Of a stretch of DNA of 64,000 nucleotides, positions 7,400 through 28,875 are shown one piece after another (within the stretch, counting starts at the first letter, position 1; every line of letters starts with the position of its first letter). The stretch is from positions 4,032,001 to 4,096,000 of the forward strand of contig CAVYRF010000002.1 of NCBI GenBank assembly GCA_963770895.1, read 5' to 3'. This stretch comes from an uncultured Acidobacteriota bacterium (GTDB lineage: Bacteria; Acidobacteriota; Thermoanaerobaculia; Multivoradales; UBA5704). The translations under genes and the position numbers were made by a program. The notes under the pieces were generated by a model, which worked only from the letters and a program-made list of their open reading frames with translations, was not told where the DNA came from and did no database searches.

Positions 7400-7837
7400 A
7401 TGGAATCTCGGACGCATTTGGCGATCGATCGCAGGCTTTGCGGCGTGCCTTTGGTGGTGCCGGGGGCGGCGGTGGGGATGGCTTGGGTGGGGCTGACGAC
7501 GGTTGCTGAGATGGCGGCGGATGGGCTTGGGTTGGTGCATGGCGGCTTCGTGTTCGGGCTGGCGGACTATGCGGCGATGCTGGCGGTCAACGATCCGTTG
7601 GTGGTGTTGGGGAGTGCCGAGGTGCGGTTCCTGCGGCCGGTCGTGGTGGGGGAGCGGCTGGTCGCGGAGGCGCGGCGGGAGGGGGAGGCGGGGCGGCGCA
7701 GCAAGGTGGTGGTGGAGGTGCGGCGAGCGCCGGATGATCGCGGCGATCCACGGAGCGCGGACGGGGAGGTGGTGATGCGCGGGGAATTCGTCTGCTTCAC
7801 GCTGGAACGGCACGTGCTGCAGACGGAGCCGGCATGA
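7400..7837 (+). CDS. PaaI-family hotdog-fold thioesterase
   Basis: [20 protein letters not shown]...[19 protein letters not shown]. The stop overlaps the next ATG (ATGA). Confidence 0.88.
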
Positions 7838-9801
7838 ACGGCGGCGAGCAGATCGCCGCGGTGCTGGCGCGGCAGGGCGTGCGTTTCCTGTTCACCCTGT
7901 GCGGCGGGCATATCTCGCCGATCCTGGTGGGGGCCAAGCAGTTGGGGATCCGCGTCGTGGACGTGCGCGACGAGGTGGCGGCGGTGTTCGCGGCGGATGC
8001 GGTGGCGCGCCTGACCGGGGTGCCGGGGGTGGCGGCGGTGACCGCCGGGCCGGGTGTGACCAACACGGTGACGGCGCTCAAGAACGCGCAGATGGCGCAG
8101 TCGCCGGTGGTGCTGCTGGGCGGCGCGGCGGCGACCTTGCTCAAGGGGCGCGGCGCGCTGCAGGACATCGAGCAGATGCCGCTGATCCGGCCGCACGTCA
8201 AGTGGGCGGCGAGCGCCCGCGCGGTGCGCGAGCTGGCGCCGCTGCTCGAAGAGGCGTTCCGCCAGGCGCGCGCCGGGGTGCCGGGGCCGGTGTTCCTGGA
8301 ATGCCCGATCGACCTGTTGTACCCCGAAACGTTGGTGCGGCAGATGTACGGCGCGTCCGCCGGCGACGGTGCCGCGGGCGAGGCAGGCGAAAGTGCGGCC
8401 AAGGACGGCGGCGGCGGACTGGCCGGCTGGGCGCTGCGTTTCTACCTGCGCCGCCACCTGGCGCGGCTGTTCCGGCCGGGGCGGGCGATCGCTGCGGGCG
8501 CCATCGCATCCGGCGCCGTGCCCGGTGCGCGAGCGAGCGCGGGCGATGGCGTCCAGGGCGTCACCGGGCGGGAGCAGGCGCCGTCGCGCGGGCAGGTGCG
8601 GCGGGCGGCGGCTCTCCTGGCGCGGAGCGAGCGGCCGGTGCTGGTGGTGGGGAGCCAGGCGGTGCTGGATACGGCGGCGGTGGGGGAGCTGGCGGCGGCC
8701 ATCGCGGCGATCGGCGTGCCCTGCTACCTGGCGGGTGGCGCGCGCGGGTTGCTGGGCGCCAGCCATCCGTTGCAGCTGCGCCACCGCCGCAAGGAGGCGC
8801 TGCGCCAGGCCGACGTGGTGCTGCTGGCCGGCATCCCCAACGATTTCCGGCTCGACTACGGGCGCCACGTCAACCGGCGGGCCGACCTGGTGATGATCAG
8901 CCGCAAGGCGGACGATCTGAGCCAGAACCGTCGCCCGCGCCTGGCGGTGCACGCCGATCCGGGCCGCTTTCTGCGCGACCTGGCCGCGTACGGCCGGCGC
9001 GCCGGCGGCGGCCCTGCCGGGGAGGGGCTGGCTGCCCTGCCCGGCGTGGCAGCTTCTGCAGTGCCGGCGGCGCCGCTGGCGGAGGGGACCGATACGGCGC
9101 CGACCGGTTCGACCTCGGCAGGGAACCGTGAGGCGGGGCCAGGCAGGTGGGCGTCGTGGCTCGGCGCTCTGCGCGGCCGTGACGACGACCGCGAGCGGGA
9201 GATCGCGGCGCAGGCGGCGGCCGCGGTCAGCGGCGGGCTGGTCAATCCGCTGCACCTTTGCCGCGAGATCGAGTCGCTGCTGGCTCCCGACAGCGTGATC
9301 GTGGCCGACGGCGGGGATTTTGTGGGCACCGCGGCGTACGTGCTGCGGCCGCGGGCGCCGCTGTCGTGGCTGGATCCCGGCGTGTTCGGCACCTTGGGGG
9401 TGGGGGGCGGCTTTGCGCTCGGCGCCAAGCTGTGCCGGCCGGGTGCGGACGTGTGGATCGTCTATGGTGACGGCTCGGCCGCCTACAGCCTGGCGGAGAT
9501 CGACACCATGGCGCGCCACGGCCTGGCGGTGATCGCGGTGGTGGGCAACGACGCGGGATGGGCGCAGATCGCCCGCGAGCAGGTGGAGATGCTGCACGAC
9601 GACGTGGGCACCGTGCTGGCGCGTACCGACTACCATCGGGTGGCCGCCGGGTACGGCGGCATGGGTCTGCGCATCGCCCGCCCCGAAGACGTCCGCCCGG
9701 TCCTGGAAGAAGCGCTGCGGCTGGCCCGCGCCGGCTCGCCGGTCCTGGTCAACGCCCTGATCGGGCGCACCGAGTTCCGCAAGGGCTCGATCTCGATCTG
9801 A
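7834..9801 (+). CDS. ThDP-dependent enzyme, ILVBL / 2-hydroxyacyl-CoA lyase-like (acetolactate synthase-like family)
   Basis: [62 protein letters not shown], and ThDP motif GDGSAAYS...VVGNDAGW. Confidence 0.88.
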
Positions 9802-9827
9802 GCCAGCCGGGTGGCGGGCCTGAACCC

Positions 9828-11624
9828 ATGAACGTGGGCGCCCGGCCGCGGGCGGCGCTGCCGGTGGCCGCGATGCTGGCGGCGCTGGCGGCGGTCGCGT
9901 CGGTCGTTGCCGGCGTCGTGCTGCGCCTGTGGGGATTGGCGGATCAGGTCCTGGGCGGCGACGAGCTGCACGCGGTGCGGGTGGCGCTGGCACAGCCGCT
10001 GTCGGCGGTGCTCACGACCTACCAGCTGGCGGACGCGTGCATCCCGCTGACGGCGCTCGATCGCTGGCTGCTTGACCACGGAGTTGCCCTGAGCGAAATG
10101 TGGCTGCGCCTGCCGGTGCTGACGTGCGGCCTGGCGGCGCTGGCGGCCATCCCGGCGCTCGCCCGCCGTTACCTGGAGCCCGCCGCCCGGCCGATCCTGT
10201 GGGCGCTGGTGGCGACGTCGCCGCTGCTCGTCCTGTACAGCCGCATCGCCCGCTCGTACATGCCGGCGACCCTGCTCAGCTTTGCCGCCGTCATGGCGTT
10301 CGGCCGCTGGTGGATGGATGCCGGCGCCAATACCGCAAGTCCCGCCGACGCCGCCAGTGCCGCCAGTGCCGCCGATGCCGCCGCAGCCGGCGCGCGCGGT
10401 AGCCGTGTCGCGCTGGCGTGCTACGCGGCGCTGGGGGCGCTGGCCGTTTGGTTCCACCTGGGGACCGCTCCTATCGTCGCGGCGCCGTTGGTCGTTGCGG
10501 CCAGCCAGATGAGTCTGGCTGCGCTGCGCGGTTGGCGAAGCGAGGGGGGACGTTTGGCGCCGGGGCGCCCTTCCCGATGGCGCGAGTTGGCGGCGGCGGC
10601 CGCGGGTCTGGCGTCGGGTTGGGCTTTGTTTCTGGTGCCGGCGGCCCCATCGCTTGCCCGCCTGGTGGCCGCCAAGAGCCAGGCGCAGCGGATACCGGCC
10701 GCGGTGTGGGGCGACGTGCTGCGGTTGCAGGCGGGATGCGGCGGGCGTTTGCCGGCGGCGCTTTTCTGGCTGAGCGCGGCGGTGGGGGCGGTCACCCTGG
10801 TGCGCCGGTGGCAGCGGTGCGGCATCTACCTGGTGGCGCTGGCGCTCGCCCAGGTGCTGGGCATCCGGGTGTTGTCGCCGCTGGGACTGGCGCGCGCGCA
10901 GGTGCTCGATCGCTACCTGCTGCCGGTGCTGCCGATCGTGCTGGTGTGGGTGGCGACGGGCCTGGCGCGGCCCTGGTGGCCGCGGCAGTCGGCGTTCGGG
11001 CGGCGCGGCCAGCGATGGGCCGCGGCCGGGCTGCTGCTGGTGTGGGTGAGCGCGGGGCCGTTCGGCGACGCCGATTTTCGGAGCAGCTCGTTCATGCACC
11101 ACAACGACATGGTGGCGTTCGCCCTGCCGCGCGCGGTGGCGCCGCCGGGCGCGGTGCCGCGCCCCTACCTGGCCCTGGGGGGGCCGCCGGGCACGGCGGT
11201 GATCGAGCTGCCCTGGCCGCCGGTGTGGGACTTTGGCCGCTCGTTCTACGTCTATCAGGAAGTGCACGGCCTGCGCGTCCTGGTGGCCGCTCCGGGCGGC
11301 GCCCTTCTCGCGGGCCGCCTCCGCTGGCGCAACCAGGTGGAGGCAGCGCCGGCCGCGCTCCTGGGCAGCGGCGCGCGCTATGTCGTGGTGCATCGCCACC
11401 TGGCGGTGGAGGAGAACCGCCTGACCCTGCCGGCGGGGCCGCCGGCGCCGCGCCACATGCCCGCCGCCGCAGCCGCGGCGCTGGCGGCGGCGGGGAATGC
11501 TGCAGACTCGCTCCTCGCTAGCGCCTGGGGGCCGCCAGCCTACGCCGACGCCGACGTCGCCGTGTGGGACCTGGCAAAGTTGCGCCGCGGTGGCGCGGGC
11601 GGCGCGCCGCTCAACGGCCGTTGA
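9828..11624 (+). CDS. GT-C fold (PMT/ArnT-like) membrane glycosyltransferase
   Basis: First TM followed by LRLWGLADQVLGGDE (DE motif), then LRLP, SPLLVLYSRIARSY and RYLLPVLP. Many TM segments. Confidence 0.7.
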   Translation: MNVGARPRAALPVAAMLAALAAVASVVAGVVLRLWGLADQVLGGDELHAVRVALAQPLSAVLTTYQLADACIPLTALDRWLLDHGVALSEMWLRLPVLTCGLAALAAIPALARRYLEPAARPILWALVATSPLLVLYSRIARSYMPATLLSFAAVMAFGRWWMDAGANTASPADAASAASAADAAAAGARGSRVALACYAALGALAVWFHLGTAPIVAAPLVVAASQMSLAALRGWRSEGGRLAPGRPSRWRELAAAAAGLASGWALFLVPAAPSLARLVAAKSQAQRIPAAVWGDVLRLQAGCGGRLPAALFWLSAAVGAVTLVRRWQRCGIYLVALALAQVLGIRVLSPLGLARAQVLDRYLLPVLPIVLVWVATGLARPWWPRQSAFGRRGQRWAAAGLLLVWVSAGPFGDADFRSSSFMHHNDMVAFALPRAVAPPGAVPRPYLALGGPPGTAVIELPWPPVWDFGRSFYVYQEVHGLRVLVAAPGGALLAGRLRWRNQVEAAPAALLGSGARYVVVHRHLAVEENRLTLPAGPPAPRHMPAAAAAALAAAGNAADSLLASAWGPPAYADADVAVWDLAKLRRGGAGGAPLNGR

Positions 11625-12119
11625 GCGCCACCGCGCTGGCCGCCCGGCGCCGGCGCCGGCCGATCTGCCGGGAAGGCGAGCTGGCCGTCGGTCGCCTTTG
11701 GGCAGCTTGCGGCACCATGAGTACGGCTATTGCGGGATAAAGGGTAACTACCGCCTCTGGCAGCGCCGCGCGCGCCGGCCTGCCGGGAAGACTTGGACCA
11801 GGGGTCGTCCCGGGCGCGGGCGGTTTCCCGGTTCGGGCTGGTGCAGGTGGTCGCAGGTGGTCGTTCGTTTTGGCAACCCTGCCCGACGGGTTCCGCGAAG
11901 CATGGACGGTGGAGTTGGCAAGAGCGGTCGTGGGAAACCAAAAAATGGTTCGGTTCGCCTTGGCCGCCGCCTTTGTGGGCTGGTGGCGGCTTTGGCGCAG
12001 CGCTGGCCGTGCCGGCGATGGCGCGGGCGGCGGCCGGGCTTCTGGTCCCGGTGGTGGCGGGTGCTGGCTCGGGCGGGCTACGGTATGATCGGCGGCCGAA
12101 TACGACAGGAGGATCGGGA

Positions 12120-14336
12120 ATGCACACGCGCACGTCGCCGACGGATGTTGGTCTCAGGAAGAGGCGGCTGGCGCCGCTGGCGTTGCCGGCCTGGCCGGCG
12201 CTGCTGGCTCTGGTGGTCGGCGCTGGCCTGGCGGCTCCGCCTGCGGTCCAGGCGGCTCCGGTTGCGGCGGCGGGTTCGGCTGCAGCCCCGACGGGGGAGG
12301 CCTCGGCCAGCCATCCCTTTGCTGCGATCGACATGCTGTCGATGCTGCGGGTTTCGCAGCCGCAGGCGTCGCCGCGCGGCGATTGGGTGGCGTTCGTGGT
12401 GCAGCGTCCCGATTTTGCCGCCAACAGCAACCATACGGACCTGTGGATCGTGGGCGGCGACGGCAGCGGCGAGCGTGCGCTGACGACGGATGGCGCGGGC
12501 TACGACAATCCGCGCTGGGCGGCCGACGGCAGCGCCTTGTACTTCCTTTCCAGGCGATCGGGGAACAGTCAGATCTGGCGGCTGGCCGCGGCGCAGGCGG
12601 GCCAGGCGGCGCCGCAGTTCGAGCAGGTGACGCGGCTGCCGGTGGAGGTGACCAGCTTCCAGCTGACGCCCGACGCGGCGCACGCGGTGGTGAGCGCCGA
12701 CGTGTTTCCCGACTGCCCGAACCTGGGGTGTACGCACGACCGGCTGGAGACGGTGGCGAAGAGCACGGTCAAGGCGCGGTTCTTCCCCGACGGGACCGGC
12801 TTTGTCCGCCATTGGGACACGTGGGAAGACGGCACCCGCTCGCACCTGTTCGCCGTGGCCCTGGGCGACGGCGGGGCGGCGCCGATCGACCTGATGCATG
12901 GCATGCAGGGTGACGCACCGTCGAAGCCCGAGGGCGGCCCCGAGGAGTACGCGGTGTCTCCCGACGGCCGGACGGTGGTGTTCGCGGTGCGTCTGGCCGG
13001 GCGCGGCGAGCCGTGGTCCACCAACTTCGACCTGTACAGCGTGCCGCTCGACGGTTCGCAGGCGCCGCGCGACCTGACCGCGACCAATCCGGCCTGGGAC
13101 AGCTTCCCGGTGTTCTCGCCGGATGGCAGGACGCTGGCCTATGGGGCGCAGACGCGTCCCGCCGACGAGGCGGACCGCTTTCACCTGGTGCTGCGCGACC
13201 TGGCGAGCGGCCAGGAGCGCAGGATCGCGGAGGAGTGGGACCGGTCGGTCGGGCCGCTGCTGTTCTCGGCCGACGGCCGGACGCTGTTCACCACCACGAG
13301 CGACATGGGGCAGAACCCGGTGTTCGCCATCGACGTGGCGACCGGGCACGTGCGCAAGCTGCCGCTGGCCGGCCACGTCGCCGCGCCGGGGCTGGCCGGC
13401 AGCAACCGCCTGGTGGTGACCATGGACGACCTGCGCCACCCGGCCGAGGTGTACACGCTCGGCACCGACGGGTCGGCGCCGGTGCAGATCACCCACCTCA
13501 ACCGGCAGCGCCTGGCGACGGTGCGGATGGGCGACTTCGAGCAGTTCCACTTTGCCGGCGCCGGCGGCGAGACCGTGTATGGCTGGGTGGTCAAGCCAGC
13601 CGACCTTGCGCCCGGCAAGCGGTATCCGACGGTTTTGATCATCCACGGCGGCCCCGAGTCCGCGATGGACAACCATTTTCACTACCGCTGGAACCCCGAG
13701 GTGTATGCCGGGGCCGGCTACGGCGTGGTGTTCATCGATTTTCACGGCACGCCGGGGTACGGCCAGGCGTTCGTCGACTCGATCGCCCACGATTGGGGCG
13801 GCAAACCGTTCGTCGATCTGCAGCTGGGGCTGGCGGCGGCGGTCGCGCGCTATCCCTGGATGGACGGCGAGCGGGCCTGCGACCTGGGGGCCTCGTTCGG
13901 CGGTTTCATGACCAATTGGATCGAAGGCAACTGGCCCGACCGCTTCCGCTGCGCGGTGACCCACGACGGTGTGTTCGATCAGCGCATGATGTATTACGCG
14001 ACCGAGGAGCTGTGGTTCCCGGAGTATGAAGAGGGCGCGCCGGAGTTTCAGGCGCCCGAGGCCTACGAGAAGTGGAACCCGGTGCGTTTTGTCGACCGCT
14101 GGAAGACGCCGATGCTGGTCGTCCACAGCGACCTGGACTTCCGCATCCCGCTCAGCCAGGGCCTGGGCGCCTATACCGCGCTGCGGCGGCGCGGCGTGCC
14201 CAGCGAGTTCCTGGAGTTTCCCAACGAGAACCACTGGGTGCTGAAGCCGGCCGACAGCTTGCTGTGGCACCAGACCGTGCTGTCGTGGCTGGCGCGGTGG
14301 CTCAACCCGCCGACCGGCACGCCCGTCGCGCAGTGA
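12120..14336 (+). CDS. S9 family peptidase (dipeptidyl-peptidase 5 / acylaminoacyl-peptidase-like)
   Basis: AGGAGG upstream, signal peptide, PD40-type propeller repeats, IHGGPE, nucleophile GASFGG, DFRIP (Asp), FPNENHWV (His). Confidence 0.92.
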   Translation: MHTRTSPTDVGLRKRRLAPLALPAWPALLALVVGAGLAAPPAVQAAPVAAAGSAAAPTGEASASHPFAAIDMLSMLRVSQPQASPRGDWVAFVVQRPDFAANSNHTDLWIVGGDGSGERALTTDGAGYDNPRWAADGSALYFLSRRSGNSQIWRLAAAQAGQAAPQFEQVTRLPVEVTSFQLTPDAAHAVVSADVFPDCPNLGCTHDRLETVAKSTVKARFFPDGTGFVRHWDTWEDGTRSHLFAVALGDGGAAPIDLMHGMQGDAPSKPEGGPEEYAVSPDGRTVVFAVRLAGRGEPWSTNFDLYSVPLDGSQAPRDLTATNPAWDSFPVFSPDGRTLAYGAQTRPADEADRFHLVLRDLASGQERRIAEEWDRSVGPLLFSADGRTLFTTTSDMGQNPVFAIDVATGHVRKLPLAGHVAAPGLAGSNRLVVTMDDLRHPAEVYTLGTDGSAPVQITHLNRQRLATVRMGDFEQFHFAGAGGETVYGWVVKPADLAPGKRYPTVLIIHGGPESAMDNHFHYRWNPEVYAGAGYGVVFIDFHGTPGYGQAFVDSIAHDWGGKPFVDLQLGLAAAVARYPWMDGERACDLGASFGGFMTNWIEGNWPDRFRCAVTHDGVFDQRMMYYATEELWFPEYEEGAPEFQAPEAYEKWNPVRFVDRWKTPMLVVHSDLDFRIPLSQGLGAYTALRRRGVPSEFLEFPNENHWVLKPADSLLWHQTVLSWLARWLNPPTGTPVAQ

Positions 14337-14435
14337 TTGCCGTCGTGCACTCGTAGACCTTGAAGGTGCGCGGTCGCGGCGTCCTGGGGGCGTCGGGGCC
14401 GCGCACCTGACCTCCCCGCTGCACACGCCGCGCAC

Positions 14436-14607
14436 CTGGCCTCCCTGGTGCACACCTGGCCTCCTGCGCCGCATACCTGGCCTCCCTGCCGCAGCCCTGG
14501 CCTCGCTGCCGCAGTCCTGGCCTCGCTGCCGCGCATCTGGCCTCGCTGCCGCGGCCCTGCGCCTCGCTGCCGCGCATCTGGCCTCCCTGCCGCGCATCTG
14601 GCCTCCC
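14436..14607. repeat. Tandem array of 20-21 bp units, consensus CTGGCCTC(C/G)CTGCCGC-N4
   Basis: Units start at 14436, 14456, 14477, 14497, 14517, 14537, 14557, 14578 and 14598, with a degenerate copy at 14407. Intergenic. Confidence 0.9.
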
Positions 14608-14863
14608 CTGCGCCTCCCTCGCCGCCTCTCTCGCTGCCTCCCTGCCGGCGCTGTTTGCCCCTGCTTTGGCCTTCGCTGAGGCCGGCGATCCCTTGTCGTG
14701 GTTGGGGTTGCGATTTCTTGATGGTCTTTGTCTTCAAAACCCGCCCTGCGGCAACTCTTCTTGTATAGGTGCCCCCAATAGGATGACGGGCCATCAAGGC
14801 ATCGCTATACGGGCATTAGAGCGATCAATCGGCAAGGACGGCACAGCAAGGAGAACTCGCTTT

Positions 14864-16930
14864 ATGGTTCCATTCCCCATCTCAATGCCCGGCGCTCTTC
14901 GGCTTCGCAGTGTGCAGCCTCTGATCGATTGGGACGGCTCCTGCAGCCTGGTGTACGACGTAGAGCGGGCGGCGGTGTTCGAGGTGCCGGCCGAGCTGCA
15001 GCTGCACATCGCGCCGGCGCTGGAAACGGGCGACCTGGACGAAGACCTGCTGGGATGGTTGGCCGGCGAAGATCTGCTGACCGCCGAAGGTTGGGGGGAC
15101 TGGAGCGTCTGGAGCGGCGCGGGCGCGGCGGGAGCCGATTGCGACTTCGGCGCGACGGGCGCCGCCGGTGGATTTGGCGTCTATCGTGGCGCGCACGACG
15201 ACGACGGACCGGCCGGGCGCACCGACTCGGCGGCCGGCCTGGTGGCGTTTCCGGGGATCGCGTGGCAGGCGGCCCTGCCGGTGGAAGGCGCCTTCGCCGG
15301 CGCGGGGCACCTTGGGGACGAGGCCCACGGCTGGATCAGCCAGGCCGGCGAGGGCGCCGCGCTCGACGCCCTGGAGACGCTCTTCAAACGCGCGCTGGGG
15401 GCGTCGCGCCTCAAGCTGCACTTCGATTGGGCGGGGACCGTGCCGGCCGGCGGCCTGCTCGACAAGATCGTGAGCGAGGCACGCCGCCGGGCGGTGGTGT
15501 CGCGCCAGGAGATCACTTTCGAAATCGCCGTCGACCCGGGCCAGGTCAGTGCCCAGGTTGCCCGCCGTCTGGCCGATCTGCCGGTGCACGTGCGCCTGCG
15601 GTGTGGGGAGTGCGATTCGGCCGCGCTCGCCGGCACGCCCAACGAAAACCGGCCTTGGCTGCTCGCCGAGCCGGCGGTGCAGCTGCTGCTGGAGGCGCAC
15701 GCGCAGGGGCCGCTCGCTCCCATGGCTCCGATGGCTCCGATGGCTCCGATGGCTCCAATGGCTCCCCTTGGCACCATGTCGCGGCTCGCGGCGCGGCCCG
15801 CCGAGCCGGCGCCGCTGACCGTGCAGTGCGTCCTGCACGGTGCGGCGCGGTTGATCGAGCTGTGGCGCTGGGCCAAGGGCCTGGGCCTGAGCAGCCTGGA
15901 CGTGATCCGCCTCGACGATTCGGATGCCGTCGGCTCCGGTGCCGGCGCTGGCGCCGGCATCGCCGCCACGGCCTCGGCGCCCGCGCAGGCCACGCACGCC
16001 GCGCCCGCCCCAGTCACCGCGGGCTCGCTCGTCGGCGGCGGCAGGGCAGAGTGCGCGGGCGCGGGCGCAGCGATGGCCGCGTTGCCGGTTGCGCCGGCCT
16101 CGTTCGTGGAGGCGCCAGGCGCGGGACTGCAAGGCAGCGGGGCCGGGCATCCGGTGGCGCCGGCGTCGCTGCCGCCGGCGGGCCTGGGCAGCGAGCTGTC
16201 CGAGCTGGCGGAGCTGACCTCGCGGCTGGCCTCGCGTGCCCGTGACTCGCGCCTGTACTGTCAGGACCTGGAAGCGATCTACGAAGAGACCTGCAACGAG
16301 CTGGTGGCGGGCCGCCTGCCGATCGACTTCCAGCCGCTCACCCGCATCGTTCGCCGCCTGATGCGCGGCGAGCTGCCGCGGCCGCTGGCCGGCGGCGCGG
16401 ACGACGGCGAAGCCTCGCCGGGGCTGGCCATGCGCTTTGGCGGCATCGAAACCCTGGATCCGCGCCAGCTGCCCGAGCTATGGTGGCTGCGCCTGGGCGA
16501 CCTGACGCAAGCCAACGTCGCCACCGTCGCGGGGGGAGCGCGCCTTGCGGACCTTGCAGGCGGTGCAAACGGTGATGGCGGCGCCGGCGCCCGCGCGGCG
16601 GCGGAAGCGAGCGAGCCGGAATCGGCAGTCCCCTGTGTCAGCTGCTGGGCGCGCCAGGTCTGCAACCACAGCGTCTATGTCGCTTCGCCGCTCGGCAGCG
16701 AAGACCCGCGCTCGCCGTCGCGCGAGCACTGCGACATCTGGTGCGCCGAAGTCGAAGCTGCGCTGCGCCTGTTCCATCGGCTCACCCAGATCGATCAGAC
16801 CACCCAGCTGCTGCAGTTCATCGAAGGCGACGGCGGCGGCGCGCACTCCTTCCACCCGCTGCACTCGCAGCAATCGACCATGCCCCAGCCCTTCAGCTAC
16901 ATGGATCTGCGCAGCATGAAGCCCTCGTAG
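14864..16930 (+). CDS. Degenerate radical-SAM/SPASM-like protein lacking CX3CX2C (putative pseudoenzyme)
   Basis: AAGGAGA RBS before ATG 14864. RRE-like N-terminus (LVYDVERAAVFEV...LLGWL). The segment ALETLFKRALGASRLKLHF...KIVSEARRRA...EITFEI follows the rSAM barrel pattern. C-terminal CVSCWARQVC-X22-C...ALRLF is SPASM-like. Confidence 0.7.
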   Translation: MVPFPISMPGALRLRSVQPLIDWDGSCSLVYDVERAAVFEVPAELQLHIAPALETGDLDEDLLGWLAGEDLLTAEGWGDWSVWSGAGAAGADCDFGATGAAGGFGVYRGAHDDDGPAGRTDSAAGLVAFPGIAWQAALPVEGAFAGAGHLGDEAHGWISQAGEGAALDALETLFKRALGASRLKLHFDWAGTVPAGGLLDKIVSEARRRAVVSRQEITFEIAVDPGQVSAQVARRLADLPVHVRLRCGECDSAALAGTPNENRPWLLAEPAVQLLLEAHAQGPLAPMAPMAPMAPMAPMAPLGTMSRLAARPAEPAPLTVQCVLHGAARLIELWRWAKGLGLSSLDVIRLDDSDAVGSGAGAGAGIAATASAPAQATHAAPAPVTAGSLVGGGRAECAGAGAAMAALPVAPASFVEAPGAGLQGSGAGHPVAPASLPPAGLGSELSELAELTSRLASRARDSRLYCQDLEAIYEETCNELVAGRLPIDFQPLTRIVRRLMRGELPRPLAGGADDGEASPGLAMRFGGIETLDPRQLPELWWLRLGDLTQANVATVAGGARLADLAGGANGDGGAGARAAAEASEPESAVPCVSCWARQVCNHSVYVASPLGSEDPRSPSREHCDIWCAEVEAALRLFHRLTQIDQTTQLLQFIEGDGGGAHSFHPLHSQQSTMPQPFSYMDLRSMKPS
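15716..15766 (+). repeat. In-frame 9-bp tandem repeat encoding (APM)5
   Basis: gctcccatg, gctccgatg x3, gctccaatg, gctccc. Confidence 0.9.
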
Positions 16931-17127
16931 CCCAGCTCGCGGCTTGTCCTGCAGAATTCACCAGCGGATGGCGCCGCCATTCGGCGGCGCGGGCCAGGCG
17001 TGCCGACGCAGCATCGTCGAAACGGTAGCGATGAGGAGGCGGCCGGGGCGGTCGCCTGTCTCGCGGTCGCGAAGGGAGGCGCACCGGCGCCCCCCAACTT
17101 GCAGGCGATGGGATACCGCCTAGATGC

Positions 17128-17229: not shown

Positions 17230-18114
17230 TCAATCCTTGCCGACGAAGACGCGCTGCATGTTCAGGTAGAGGCCGCTGGTCGGCAGCGTGCCGCTGATGG
17301 AGGCGCTGGCGGGCTCGATGTTGGCGGATACGTAGCCGGTCGCGGAGGCGATGCCGGTGCAGAAGCTGGGGTCGGCGGTGAGGATGTTGGTGGCGCCGTA
17401 GGCGGTGATGGGCGGGGCTGCCGCGAAGACCGGCTGGGTGGTGTTGCTGGCGGTGTACACCGCGATTTCGAACGAGCAGCTGCCATAGGCGCCCAGAACG
17501 GGATACATCTCGAAGTAATACTCGGTGTTGGGTTGGATGGTGACGCCGTTGCCCAGCACGTTGTTGGCGGCGTTCAGCTGCAGTTGCCCCTGCACCACCG
17601 AGGAGAGGTTTTCGTTGGTCCCCCAGTACGCCCAGACCGAGCTGTCGTAAGTGGCCAGGAAAAAGCCATATTCCCGGCCTCCGTTGTAGCACTGGTTGGT
17701 GTTGAAAAAGACCGACTGGAACAGGTTGCCGGTCAGGTTGTTCAACGGGTAGGGCGTGTTGAACGTTCCCAGGAATCCCACGCCGGTGACCCCGGTGCCC
17801 TGATTGCTTTCGATGAACGCCACCGGGAAGTTGGTGGTGTTGCCGCAGTTGACCGCGCCGCCAGTGCCGGGCAGCTGGGTCTGGGGCATGGACAGGGTGT
17901 TGGCGGTCGGCAGGATCCCGGCCAGGTCGGTGTTGAGGATGGGCGACTGGCTGCTGCCGGCATCGTAGTAGTTGCCGCTGGCCATGTTCGATTCGTTGGT
18001 CAGGTTCAGGATGTCGGTCCAGACCGGCGGATATTGCTGAGCGTTGGCAAGGTTTGCCGCCGCCAGCAACGCCAGCGCCACGGTCGAAAAAGCGATCGTT
18101 CGAGTCCGTTTCAT
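17230..18114 (-). CDS. Secreted hypothetical protein (N/T/G/Y-rich, probably beta-rich, 4 Cys)
   Basis: GAGGAAA RBS, signal peptide MKRTRTIAFSTVALALLAAANLANA-QQ, C/G-ending codon usage typical of a real gene. Confidence 0.8.
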   Translation of the reverse strand: MKRTRTIAFSTVALALLAAANLANAQQYPPVWTDILNLTNESNMASGNYYDAGSSQSPILNTDLAGILPTANTLSMPQTQLPGTGGAVNCGNTTNFPVAFIESNQGTGVTGVGFLGTFNTPYPLNNLTGNLFQSVFFNTNQCYNGGREYGFFLATYDSSVWAYWGTNENLSSVVQGQLQLNAANNVLGNGVTIQPNTEYYFEMYPVLGAYGSCSFEIAVYTASNTTQPVFAAAPPITAYGATNILTADPSFCTGIASATGYVSANIEPASASISGTLPTSGLYLNMQRVFVGKD

Positions 18115-18194
18115 GATGTCTTTCCTCAGCGTTTGTTGCATGGGCCTTCTGCGATAGCATTCCATATTTTGAATACTATCTATTGCGAAATTGC

Positions 18195-18417: not shown

Positions 18418-20250
18418 GTGCTGCTCGAAATCCACGTGCGCAATCTGGCGGTGTTGGCCGAGGCGTCGGTGACGTTCGGTCCGGGGTTCAACGTGCTTTC
18501 GGGGGAGACGGGGGCGGGCAAGTCGATCGTGGTGGATTCGCTGTTCCTGCTGGCGGGGGCGCGGGCCAGCGGCGATCTGATCCGGGCGGGGGCGGAGGCG
18601 CTGACGGTGTCGGGGGTGTTCCGGCCGGGGGGGGCGGGGTGGCGGCGGGTGCTGGACGCGGCGGCGATCGAGATCGAAGGGGACGAAGTGCTGGTGCGGC
18701 GGGAGATCGGGCGCAACGGCCGCAACCGGGTGTTCGTCAACGATCAGCCGACGACGCTGCGGCTGCTGGCGGACCTGGCGCCGCACCTGCTGCGCATTCA
18801 TGGACAGCGCGACGAGCTTGACCTGCTGGCGGCGGAGCAGCAGCGGGAGTGGCTGGACGCGGGGGGTGGGGCGGAGGGGGACGGGCTGCTGGCGCGGGTG
18901 GGCGAAGCGTTCGCGCGCCACGCCCGGCTGGTGGAGCGCATCGAGCGCCTGAGCGGCGACGAGCGGCTGCGGCGGGAGCGGATCGAGCTGCTGCGGTTTC
19001 AGGCCGGCGAGATCGATGAAGCCAAGGGGCGGGCGGGCGAAGACGACGAGCTGCGGCAGGAGCGCGAAGTGCTGCGGCATGCCGAGGCGATCGCCGCGGC
19101 CGTGGGCGGCGCGCAGGCGCTGCTGTCCGAAGAGGAGGGCGCGGCGGTGGAGCGGGTGGCGCGCGCGCATTCGCTGCTGGCCGGGGTGGCGTCGTGGGAG
19201 CCGCAGGCGGCGGCCTGGGCTGCCGAAGTGGAGGAGGTCCGCATCCGCCTGGCGGAGGTGGCGACCGGCCTGGCGCGGCGCCTGGACGGGTTGGAGGCGG
19301 ACCCGGTGCGGCTGGATGCGGTGGAGGCGCGGCTGGCCCTGCTCGAAAGGCTGTGTCGCCGGCACGGCGGCGACCTGGCGCAGGTGCTGGCGCGGCGGGC
19401 TGAGATGGAGATCGAGCTGGCGGAGCTGGAGGGCGATGCCGACAACCTCGAGCAGCTGGCTGGCGAGGCGGCGGCGGCGCTCGCGGACTATCGCCAGGCG
19501 GCCCTGGCGCTGTCGGCGGCGCGGCAGGGGTGGGGCCAGGCGCTGGCGGGCCGCATCGAAGAGGAGCTGCAGGACCTGGCGCTGGGCCGGGCGCGGCTGG
19601 CGGTGCGCCTGGACCGGCGGCGCCGGGCCGAAAGCGAGCTGGTGCTGGACGGCGAGCCGGTCGACTACGGCCCGCATGGCATCGACCAGGTGACCTTCCT
19701 GTTCGCTCCCAATCCCGGCGAGGAGCCGCGTGCGCTGGCGCGCATCGCCTCGGGGGGAGAGCTGTCGCGGCTGCACCTGGCTCTGCAGCTGGCCGCCGGC
19801 GCCGGCCCGCGGCGGGCGGCGGGGGACTTGGGGGCGACCGTCCAGGAGCGGGAGGACGTGGCGCCGACCTTGGTGTTCGACGAGGTGGACAGCGGCATCG
19901 GCGGCGCCGAGGCGGCGGCGCTGGGGCGCAAGCTGCAACGGCTGGCCGCGGCCCGGCAGATCCTGGCCGTGACCCACCTGCCGCAGGTGGCGAGCCGCGC
20001 GGACCTCCATTTTCGCGTGCGCAAGACGGTGGCGGAGGGGCGGACCAACGTGCTGGTGGACCCGCTGGGCGGGCCGCGGCGGGTCGAAGAGGTGGCGCGC
20101 ATGCTGGGCGGGGAGTCGCTGACGCCGCTGTCGCTGTCGCACGCCGAAGAGCTGATCGCGGCGGCGGCCCGCGGCGCCGCCCAGCCGCCGGACCAGCCGC
20201 CGGCGCGGGCTGCCAGGCCGGCGGGCGGTCGGCGTCCGGCGGCGCCATGA
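18418..20250 (+). CDS. recN: DNA repair protein RecN
   Basis: FNVLSGETGAGKS (Walker A), IHGQ, coiled coil, IASGGELSR signature, LVFDEVDSGIGG, VTHLPQVA, RVEEVARMLGG. Confidence 0.96.
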   Translation: MLLEIHVRNLAVLAEASVTFGPGFNVLSGETGAGKSIVVDSLFLLAGARASGDLIRAGAEALTVSGVFRPGGAGWRRVLDAAAIEIEGDEVLVRREIGRNGRNRVFVNDQPTTLRLLADLAPHLLRIHGQRDELDLLAAEQQREWLDAGGGAEGDGLLARVGEAFARHARLVERIERLSGDERLRRERIELLRFQAGEIDEAKGRAGEDDELRQEREVLRHAEAIAAAVGGAQALLSEEEGAAVERVARAHSLLAGVASWEPQAAAWAAEVEEVRIRLAEVATGLARRLDGLEADPVRLDAVEARLALLERLCRRHGGDLAQVLARRAEMEIELAELEGDADNLEQLAGEAAAALADYRQAALALSAARQGWGQALAGRIEEELQDLALGRARLAVRLDRRRRAESELVLDGEPVDYGPHGIDQVTFLFAPNPGEEPRALARIASGGELSRLHLALQLAAGAGPRRAAGDLGATVQEREDVAPTLVFDEVDSGIGGAEAAALGRKLQRLAAARQILAVTHLPQVASRADLHFRVRKTVAEGRTNVLVDPLGGPRRVEEVARMLGGESLTPLSLSHAEELIAAAARGAAQPPDQPPARAARPAGGRRPAAP

Positions 20251-28694: not shown

Positions 28695-28875
28695 CGCTGC
28701 TCCCGGGCGGCGCGGCCGCCTGCCACGCGGCGTCATTTCCGCCGGAACCGCGCGGATAACTGACGCCAGATCGGAATGCCGCGCCGCGGCGAGGTCCACT
28801 GCCGGTTGCTATATTGCCGCTGTAGTCCCGCTGGATCGTCCACCGCCGTGCGCGGTGGCGACACTCTCATAATCG

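Follow-up and report, generated by a model that had tools for sequence, protein, structure and literature searches.

A degenerate radical-SAM/SPASM homolog with a conserved four-cysteine site in one family of Thermoanaerobaculia

The gene and its predicted fold

The window analyzed here is the whole 64,000-nt stretch of DNA from an uncultured Acidobacteriota bacterium of the class Thermoanaerobaculia (GenBank assembly GCA_963770895.1, contig CAVYRF010000002.1, positions 4,032,001 to 4,096,000). On its forward strand, at 14864..16930, it bears an intact open reading frame (ORF) of 688 aa, which homologs, an alignment, the predicted fold and profile–profile comparison (hhalign) identify as a degenerate homolog of radical S-adenosylmethionine (SAM) enzymes with a SPASM domain. 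We regard the product as a pseudoenzyme offshoot of the radical-SAM/SPASM maturases of peptides that ribosomes make and that are modified after translation (RiPPs), with an architecture as in the CteB- and TigE-type enzymes. Frame +1 is open from 14666, and homologs support the ATG at 14864 as the start, the first seven residues of the closest homolog (P0003) being those of the window protein. A ribosome-binding site, AAGGAGA, can be read at 14848..14854, 9 nt before the ATG, so that the intact ORF with a good ribosome-binding site noted in a preliminary description of this DNA is indeed there. The GC content across the window is high (0.65–0.78).

The first ordered unit of the protein is an N-terminal domain (N-domain; residues 8–75, 14885..15088) predicted to resemble the RiPP recognition element (RRE); it is built of three or four strands and, after these, two helices, is modelled with a predicted local distance difference test score (pLDDT) of 87, and is strongly acidic, with 14 Asp/Glu against 3 Lys/Arg. 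It is followed by a Gly/Ala-rich low-complexity linker (residues 76–150, 15089..15313), which is predicted to be disordered (pLDDT below 50), falls in gaps of the homologs, and is far longer than in most of them according to alignment A1, a 33-row alignment of the window protein and 32 of the 120 listed homologs described below. Secondary structure, fold matches and the hhalign columns place a partial (β/α)6 barrel at residues 151–352 (15314..15919); it has no CX3CX2C loop, carries a vestige of the GGE motif (DWAGTVP), and is broken by a (PMA)n low-complexity insert at 283–315. Next come an Ala/Gly/Pro low-complexity insert (residues 353–440, 15920..16183), predicted to be disordered and missing from most homologs, and a conserved helical segment (residues 441–503, 16184..16372), in which D468, L469, E475, P486, P491, R494 and R498 are invariant. 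The SPASM remnant, PCVSCWARQVCNHSV...C...EVEAALRLFHRL, occupies residues 589–655 (16628..16828), as delimited by a profile match to the CteB SPASM region and by hhalign, and the protein ends with the motif MKPS (16916..16927), which follows the family pattern [KR]-x-[PA]-[FSC]-COOH. In A1, the length of the window copy exceeds that of most relatives by about 200 aa, a surplus due to four Gly/Ala/Pro-rich inserts (76–150, 283–315, 353–440 and 504–588), all disordered in the AlphaFold model.

Cysteines are found at positions 27, 93, 247, 250, 322, 397, 466, 477, 591, 594, 600, 623 and 627. Those of the SPASM remnant are spaced as C591-X2-C594-X5-C600-X22-C623 (nt 16634–16732), and the sequence CNHSV, with V604 at the position of the fourth SPASM cysteine (Cys 4), an AuxI (auxiliary cluster I) position, marks where that residue has been lost. 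The peptide strings and the C-X2-C-X5-C-X22-C motif quoted in the preliminary description are all present in the translation. A search for CX3CX2C along the 688 aa found it nowhere.

A full-length AlphaFold2 (AF2) model built on A1 has a mean pLDDT of 62, which is lowered by the inserts, the ordered parts scoring 80–95. It shows strands and two helices (9–68), six strand–helix units (153–349) of the partial triosephosphate isomerase (TIM) barrel kind that characterizes the radical SAM superfamily, long helices (442–501), and a helical C-terminal region bearing the cysteines. In a structure search independent of Foldseek, covering 48,161 chains, the best match was CteB (5wgg_A; Z 16.6, rmsd 4.5, 330 residues), with model residues 12–641 lying on chain residues 1–450, the N-terminal RRE of CteB included. 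Further full-length matches were anSMEcpe (4k36_A; Z 14.8, 278 residues aligned, model residues 152–658), ChlB (9gm3_A; Z 14.3), TigE (8vpo_A; Z 12.1, model residues 6–642), Elp3 (5l7j_A; Z 9.9) and PqqE (6c8v_A; Z 9.4), and generic barrels of various chains scored 8–9. A Foldseek comparison of the full model with the PDB was weak (best E 2e-3), with radical-SAM enzymes mixed among generic TIM barrels, and phmmer with the single window protein found no match in the PDB. The predicted succession of an RRE-like N-domain, a partial TIM barrel and a SPASM-like C-terminus agrees with the fold that had been proposed from the sequence beforehand.

The N-domain modelled alone from 31 sequences (pLDDT 87) displays the three-stranded sheet followed by helices that is typical of the winged-helix RRE. 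Its best structural match is TbiB1 (Z 4.7, rmsd 2.9, 61 residues), followed by the RRE of PbtF (4.3), McbB and MccB (4.0), TbtB (3.9), the TigE N-terminus (3.7), lasso B1 (3.6), CteB and LynD (3.1 each) and PqqD (3.0), with winged helices of the OmpR type at 2.2–3.0. Judged by their titles, about 10 of the 15 best chains are RREs. From this enrichment and from the full-length alignments with CteB and TigE, the N-domain appears RRE-like, at low Z. The Pfam PqqD/RRE model does not match the window protein. The stand-alone RREs PqqD (5sxy), TbiB1 (5v1u), lasso B1 (6jx3) and PbtF (8t19) are the best structural counterparts of the N-domain (Z 4.7–3.0, 59–64 residues), a likeness to which the family adds natural N-domain-only forms of 94–130 aa. 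Unlike them, the N-domain considered here is strongly acidic, is paired with a conserved tail motif, and is encoded by a gene with no RiPP cluster around it.

Descent from active maturases and the cysteine site retained

The A1 profile, run against 1.84 billion representative sequences, gave 242 matches at E<=1e-3, which grade into bona fide enzymes. Full-length matches down to about E 1e-66 are devoid of CX3CX2C, and from P0159 (E 9e-68) downward there appear active enzymes with CNxxCxYC together with CxxCWARYLCGGGC. The named NCBIfam families nearest to these active sister sequences are the nif11-type maturases (nif11-rSAM, TIGR04064), QhpD (TIGR03906) and PapB (E 1e-45 to 1e-63), along with SCIFF, all below cut-off. 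The window protein itself has only weak NCBIfam matches, confined to the C-terminal ~60 residues (583–645): TIGR03906 at E 0.0013 (17.5 bits, the cut-off being 453) and TIGR04064 at E 0.0071 (15.1 bits, cut-off 518.7). By these cut-offs it is not a member of the QhpD or nif11 maturases, and its active sisters also lie below every cut-off. When A1 was compared by hhalign with 15 active relatives, the alignment extended over 432 columns from the N-domain to the C-terminus (probability 100%, E 7.6e-45); in addition, the profile matches the SPASM region of CteB at E 0.099, with the CxxCWAxxxC...C segment aligned. Judged from these comparisons, the protein is descended from an RRE-bearing radical-SAM/SPASM peptide maturase.

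What has been lost on the way can be followed column by column in an alignment of 55 sequences, 20 of them active and 35 without CX3CX2C. In the active set, cysteine is found in 18–20 of the 20 sequences at each of the three columns of the radical-SAM (RS) cluster, the two upstream AuxI columns (in the CGAG and YPC motifs), and the five SPASM columns. The 35 other sequences have cysteines only at the columns of C591, C594, C600 and C623, the exceptions being P0150 and P0153, each without one ligand of auxiliary cluster II (AuxII), and P0068 and P0144, which retain Cys 4; P0144 has lost the RS cluster site and kept all five SPASM cysteines. In the window protein, the aligned loop after strand 1 holds no cysteine, the radical SAM superfamily model of Pfam (PF04055) is not matched, and of the seven cysteines that define the SPASM domain (TIGR04085/PF13186) only four positions are occupied, both upstream AuxI columns and Cys 4 being non-Cys. 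SPASM homology of the C-terminal region is nevertheless evident from the column-for-column hhalign alignment and the weak TIGR03906 and TIGR04064 matches. In the alignment, DWAGTVP stands where the active relatives have FGGEP. The earlier statement that GGEP is gone holds for the Glu, which is lost, but not for the motif as a whole, of which a vestige survives with invariant G191 and P194. Since both the cluster site and the SAM-contacting Glu are lost, radical-SAM chemistry appears to be excluded.

In a quick tree computed with IQ-TREE, a branch with a Shimodaira–Hasegawa-like approximate likelihood ratio test (SH-aLRT) value of 100 sets the 35 sequences devoid of CX3CX2C apart from the rest; a single loss would be compatible with this.

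In anSME, the first three cysteines of the SPASM motif and the distal one bind AuxII, and the fourth binds AuxI. The four invariant cysteines C591, C594, C600 and C623 (16634..16732) stand at AuxII ligand positions in the alignments, and the same assignment follows from AhbD mutagenesis, where C312, C315 and C321 are ascribed to AuxII, and C324 and upstream Cys to AuxI (PMC10452713). The cysteine bookkeeping of the preliminary description, namely, that Cys 4 is lost, the AuxII ligands are kept and no upstream AuxI cysteine remains, is thereby upheld both by the comparison with active relatives and by this source. The same paper reports that a [4Fe-4S] cluster is retained by an engineered AhbD variant deprived of its RS and AuxI ligands and that natural AhbDs without AuxI exist, which makes a single cluster plausible in the window protein as well. 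As in the target family, these natural AhbDs have lost the AuxI ligands and kept AuxII; they still possess the radical-SAM cluster and remain candidate enzymes (PMC10452713), whereas the target family has lost that cluster too.

The four cysteines might instead form a structural Zn site in a pure peptide- or protein-binding module without Fe-S chemistry. Zn can occupy four-Cys sites, and the dispensability of the site in the natural short forms described below would fit such a role. On the other hand, the site is homologous column-for-column to the AuxII [4Fe-4S] site, including its CWAR and WxxEVE context, and the engineered AuxII-only AhbD retains [4Fe-4S] (PMC10452713); we therefore give the Zn explanation little probability.

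Several known systems share parts of this organization. CteB (5wgg), TigE (8vpo) and SuiB (5v1q) have the same domain order: an N-terminal RRE, a partial TIM barrel, bridging helices and SPASM. Unlike CteB-type maturases, the protein described here lacks CX3CX2C, the Glu of GGE, the AuxI ligands and the fourth SPASM cysteine; moreover, no precursor gene was found near it, and it is encoded by a near-universal core gene of one bacterial family. The barrel and SPASM fold are also shared with anSMEcpe (4k36), which has no RRE and binds three clusters, whereas only the AuxII-equivalent site is left in the window protein. In Twitch enzymes, the single cluster occupies an AuxI-equivalent position. 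These radical-SAM enzymes (BtrN, MoaA) possess a shortened domain of the SPASM type that houses one auxiliary cluster (PMC9012708), and they keep the radical-SAM cluster; the target family has kept the AuxII ligands instead. HxsC, considered as a possible precedent for a cluster-less radical-SAM paralog, was set aside, as PMC13128918 treats it as a real radical-SAM enzyme with the first-cluster motif. A search of full-text literature, whose coverage leaves out most subscription journals, found no description of cluster-less or pseudo radical-SAM/SPASM homologs or of a stand-alone SPASM domain.

The family, its short forms and a possible role

A word-indexed protein search found 133 homologs at E<=1e-3. 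The 120 listed of these are 437–586 aa long and bear no Pfam domain; those with a name are "hypothetical protein" entries of Thermoanaerobaculia metagenome-assembled genomes. All 120 contain CX2CX5C, none has CX3CX2C in the first 250 aa, which extends to the family what had been noted for the window protein, and a single one (P0068) possesses the fourth SPASM cysteine. In A1, 47 columns are invariant, including C27, C591, C594, C600 and C623, with C247 nearly so; R13, R15, D32, R35 and W65 are among the invariant residues of the N-domain, where conservation is highest (mean pairwise identity 0.77). The corresponding values are 0.62 for the SPASM remnant, 0.63 for the helical segment, 0.50–0.64 for the barrel, and 0.28–0.30 for the linkers and the tail. 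A Pfam scan of the window protein returned no family even at E<=10. In the ESM Atlas, a compact family member sits in an unnamed cluster of 88 Acidobacteriota members, whose next neighbours are radical-SAM clusters. This is a real conserved family, so far without a name, and the absence of Pfam and NCBIfam membership and of a literature description is consistent with the earlier suggestion that it is undescribed.

The gene was matched in 89 of the 92 genomes of its own GTDB family, once only in 75 of the 89, and is carried by 55 of the 56 high-quality genomes and by all 11 genera. Outside this family, 299 genomes of the phylum gave no match, and in a 301-genome sample of the phylum the only matches at E<=1e-10 were the own genome and one further genome of the same GTDB family. 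Both the phylum sample and the class survey of the S9 peptidase gene considered below include one unpublished genome (G024), which is negative for the target and positive for S9. Such a distribution is that of a core gene specific to one lineage, not of a gene that occurs sporadically as part of a biosynthetic cluster.

The dN/dS values, computed by the Nei–Gojobori (NG86) method for the 40 closest of 195 locus pairs (70–97% amino-acid identity), range from 0.12 to 0.43; they probably lean high, because the strong bias in GC content at third codon positions (GC3) deflates dS. These values and the invariance of C591, C594, C600 and C623 in A1 answer the proposal to check the four cysteines and the selection on the gene: the family is under purifying selection. 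The alternative of a decaying gene without function draws on the four long low-complexity inserts, which make the window copy ~200 aa longer than most relatives. Against it, the ORF is intact; the family residue is present at all 47 invariant A1 columns; the terminal branch in the quick tree is not lengthened (0.30 versus 0.27 for the sister); and the gene is retained in nearly all family genomes at the dN/dS values given above. Neither of the signs of decay named beforehand, close homologs retaining CX3CX2C and relaxed selection, was seen. Short-read contigs of two studies cover parts of the ORF and match there without indels; this coverage is partial, so that its holes carry no weight, and no RNA run is listed as holding the sequence. 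Altogether, decay can hardly account for this gene.

Natural short forms of the protein exist. In five genomes of the family (G366, G367, G370, G373 and G389), only the first 80–88 profile positions match, the open frames being 106–178 aa long, and in a sixth locus (L058) the match is limited to residues 6–91. The short proteins encoded at L075:2030-2422, L076:1982-2287 and L077:2061-2345 measure 94–130 aa, depending on the start chosen, and consist of the N-domain and a short tail; two more loci (L129 and L130) encode the same short protein. At least five genomes, belonging to two genera, have such forms in place of the full-length gene, and most positions invariant within the N-domain of A1 are unchanged in them. 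Their tails resemble those of full-length genus-mates: ...STKAPC versus ...GSKAPC in one genus, and ...LGRREDLDDPKRVC versus ...FRRGDLEVSKLVC and ...LGWREDLGFTKQPS in the other, a resemblance that extends at the protein level over 6 residues in one lineage and ~14 in the other. The C-terminal pattern [KR]-x-[PA]-[FSC]-COOH, with a penultimate Pro in many members, runs through the whole family, short forms included. When the short-form loci were compared by blastn, only the N-domain was aligned in both lineages, and the methyltransferase flank (see below) only for L075. The short genes look like the outcome of two independent in-frame internal deletions that kept the N-domain and the tail. As it is these parts that the short forms keep, the N-domain, perhaps with the tail, is suggested to be the core functional unit, to which the barrel and the cysteine site add something dispensable in some lineages.

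On balance, and by a narrow measure, we consider it probable that the protein is a non-catalytic Fe-S protein, an adaptor or sensor and not an enzyme, in which the RRE-like domain docks a short basic segment and the cluster is structural or sensing. The ancestor would have been an RRE-bearing radical-SAM/SPASM maturase from the neighbourhood of QhpD, nif11-rSAM and PapB. In one ancestral series of steps, it may have lost the CX3CX2C site, the Glu of GGE and all AuxI ligands, while keeping the RRE-like N-domain, on which constraint is now strongest, the barrel, which apparently serves as a scaffold, and the complete four-Cys AuxII site. The product would be a cytoplasmic protein holding a single [4Fe-4S] cluster, whose acidic RRE-like domain might dock a short basic peptide, either of a partner or its own C-terminal [KR]-x-P-[FSC] tail, and the cluster could stabilize this docking or make it depend on redox, O2 or Fe status. 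The metal content, peptide binding, partner and cellular role in this scheme are all inferred.

Some observations weigh against such a role. The short forms lack both the barrel and the cysteine site, so that the cluster is not essential to the core function everywhere. The four cysteines could bind Zn rather than Fe-S. The Z scores behind the RRE assignment of the isolated N-domain are low (at most 4.7), and a Foldseek search of the PDB with the N-domain model returned nothing significant. No partner peptide was found, and the small ORFs in the spacer upstream of the gene are not conserved in frame. Finally, strand ends in the core subfamily have retained polar residues (H155, H186, E220, R244 and D346), which could form a new active site.

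The last point leads to the possibility that the protein is a non-radical enzyme, in which the remodelled barrel, possibly with the cluster as a Lewis acid or redox centre, acts on a peptide bound by the N-domain. It is favoured by the clear constraint on the barrel and helical segment (mean identity 0.50–0.64) and by the near-invariance of these strand-end residues, together with C247, within the core subfamily. These residues are not conserved in a more divergent subgroup, as seen in alignment A3, which includes two active enzymes; its columns of full or almost full invariance belong to the N-domain, to a W/A helix that follows strand 5, to one Pro and to the Cys/WRAEVE region. Furthermore, forms without the whole barrel are maintained in nature, and no enzyme family of Pfam or NCBIfam is matched. 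An enzymatic role of this kind seems to us unlikely.

The non-catalytic Fe-S adaptor or sensor may be specified further, as a RiPP-type maturase domesticated into a non-catalytic core protein of one acidobacterial family, in which the RRE-like domain and the tail form the working unit and the AuxII [4Fe-4S] cluster serves as a redox, O2 or iron switch. We put this forward tentatively, as a possibility well short of probable. Were it true, the family would provide a natural protein with AuxII alone and the first case of an Fe-S-gated adaptor with a peptide maturase as its ancestor. What AuxII does in SPASM enzymes is still described as unclear (PMC9012708), and a natural AuxII-only protein in a CteB-like fold would allow AuxII to be studied without the other two clusters. 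The series leading from active enzymes through P0144 and the AuxII-only form to the N-domain with its tail would document, in natural graded stages, a radical enzyme becoming a binding protein. The family would also be a case of an RRE-type domain in use outside a recognisable RiPP cluster, near-universally within one uncultured soil lineage. Its members are labelled "hypothetical protein", and neither Pfam nor NCBIfam has a model for them, so that both a name and a model could be supplied.

Neighbouring genes and the upstream DNA motif

The own genome (8.16 Mb, 3 contigs) has one copy of the gene, and a search of it with the A1 profile found no close active paralog; the proposal that the protein is a partner subunit of an active radical-SAM enzyme thus gains no support. 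Four matches to SPASM models above cut-off, together with a weaker fifth, are located in this genome either at least ~1 Mb from the target or on a different contig, and the target was not among the matches of a TIGR04085 scan at E<=0.01. When 15 ORFs across 3–33872 were scanned with Pfam, neither a radical-SAM gene nor an obvious precursor turned up near the target, in agreement with what had been said of this neighbourhood at the outset. What had been overlooked is the gene that immediately precedes the target in the same orientation (11793..14336); it encodes an S9 peptidase of the prolyl-oligopeptidase family (PD40 and S9 domains by Pfam) with an N-terminal signal-like segment, read by eye.

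This arrangement is widely kept. In 60 of the 61 genome loci, the S9 gene comes directly before the target and shares its orientation (with L027 S9 as the query, the exception being L035; 59 of 61 with the window S9), and S9 is also upstream in both of two divergent metagenome loci, L078 and L079. A class-I SAM methyltransferase is encoded within 2.5 kb downstream in 43 of the 61 loci, usually with a 128-aa ORF after it. The short-form loci checked (L075–L077) conform: the short ORF directly follows S9 in 3/3, and a methyltransferase comes after it in L075 and L076, with no methyltransferase match in L077. It might be supposed from this order that the protein is an accessory subunit or chaperone of a neighbour, either of the S9 peptidase, for peptide presentation or for holding before export, or of the methyltransferase. 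S9 enzymes cut after Pro, and the penultimate Pro of many family C-termini would suit such a partnership. However, the signal-like segment is found in S9 and not in the target, and 110 of the 121 genomes in the class carry S9 orthologs (53–63% identity), among them members of families that have no target gene; in five S9 loci outside the own family, neither the target nor the methyltransferase follows. Besides, a spacer of 80–400 nt (48 of 53 loci measured), with a conserved motif of its own, separates S9 from the target in most loci. As to the downstream genes, the methyltransferase query finds in the own genome only partial matches (38–44% identity) and the 128-aa protein query nothing. An accessory role is therefore distinctly unlikely. 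Because the signal-like N-terminus is confined to S9 and S9 occurs elsewhere without the target, a functional link between the two is disfavoured, and S9 is probably a mere positional neighbour; it was rejected as a co-evolving partner on account of its wide occurrence in genomes without the target, as were the methyltransferase and the 128-aa protein as obligate partners, given their partial or missing matches in the own genome.

The spacer of the window is unusually long (~530 nt versus ~250 in relatives) and holds CT-rich near-tandem repeats (ctggcctccctgccgcgcat...) at 14336–14700. An alignment of 18 loci reveals in it a conserved DNA motif, TTGTC-n4-AAA-n6-C-n-GCGG-n-AAC, with TAnAGG 8–9 nt later (14728..14769, + strand in the window). 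It stands ~95–135 nt before the ATG and is found in 18/18 loci, with invariant columns. A 7-bp inverted repeat, TTCGGGA-n6-TCCCGAA, precedes it in most of the 18. With up to two mismatches allowed, the motif occurs once in the 8.16-Mb own genome. Simple scans for sigma-70 promoters and terminators yielded no sites. The motif is likely to be the target's own promoter or operator, a candidate site for an unknown regulator. An RNA element was rejected (no Rfam match and no consensus RNA fold), and so was a regulon mark, given the single occurrence. Short precursor-like ORFs, which overlie the motif in many loci, were likewise discarded: their frame and stop vary by clade, and the variable positions span whole codons. 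It is because the frame and stop of the overlying ORF differ between clades that the motif is read at the DNA level.

Further upstream, the window contains a gene for a thiamine pyrophosphate (TPP) enzyme (7738–9801) and a + strand 688-aa ORF without a Pfam match (9558–11624), which matches TIGR03663 (Agl23-like flippase-associated protein) at E 2.9e-6, below cut-off, and is kept upstream of the S9 gene in ~21–25 related loci. In many relatives, an M48 peptidase is encoded upstream of S9 (L025:4114-5472, L027:12754-13791 and neighbours), and further downstream there are an opposite-strand second S9, a CrtC-like lipocalin protein, an FtsX permease and a spore-photoproduct-lyase-like protein; the genus of the window has conserved not one of these neighbours.

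Downstream of the target, a 311-aa ORF on the opposite strand (17230–18165, GC3 0.85) has no match in Pfam or NCBIfam and no counterpart in 61 related loci. Together with an adjacent stretch of lower GC (0.65–0.67) it looks like an insertion, because RecN directly follows the target in six related loci, including L002 and L003. Right after the target stop codon, at 16941–17064, lies a dispersed repeat of ~120 bp, about 30 further full or partial copies of which (75–95% identity) are scattered over all three contigs of the own genome. Its predicted fold is no better than that of shuffled sequence (z -0.27), and short-read contigs of four runs break inside it, at 16963–16966. RecN in the window is encoded at 18418–20250 and is followed by further housekeeping genes. 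Finally, a giant + strand frame of >11,700 codons begins at 28873 and is open past the window end (64000); its first 1,666 aa include Condensation, AMP-binding and PP-binding domains, which identifies it as a giant nonribosomal peptide synthetase.

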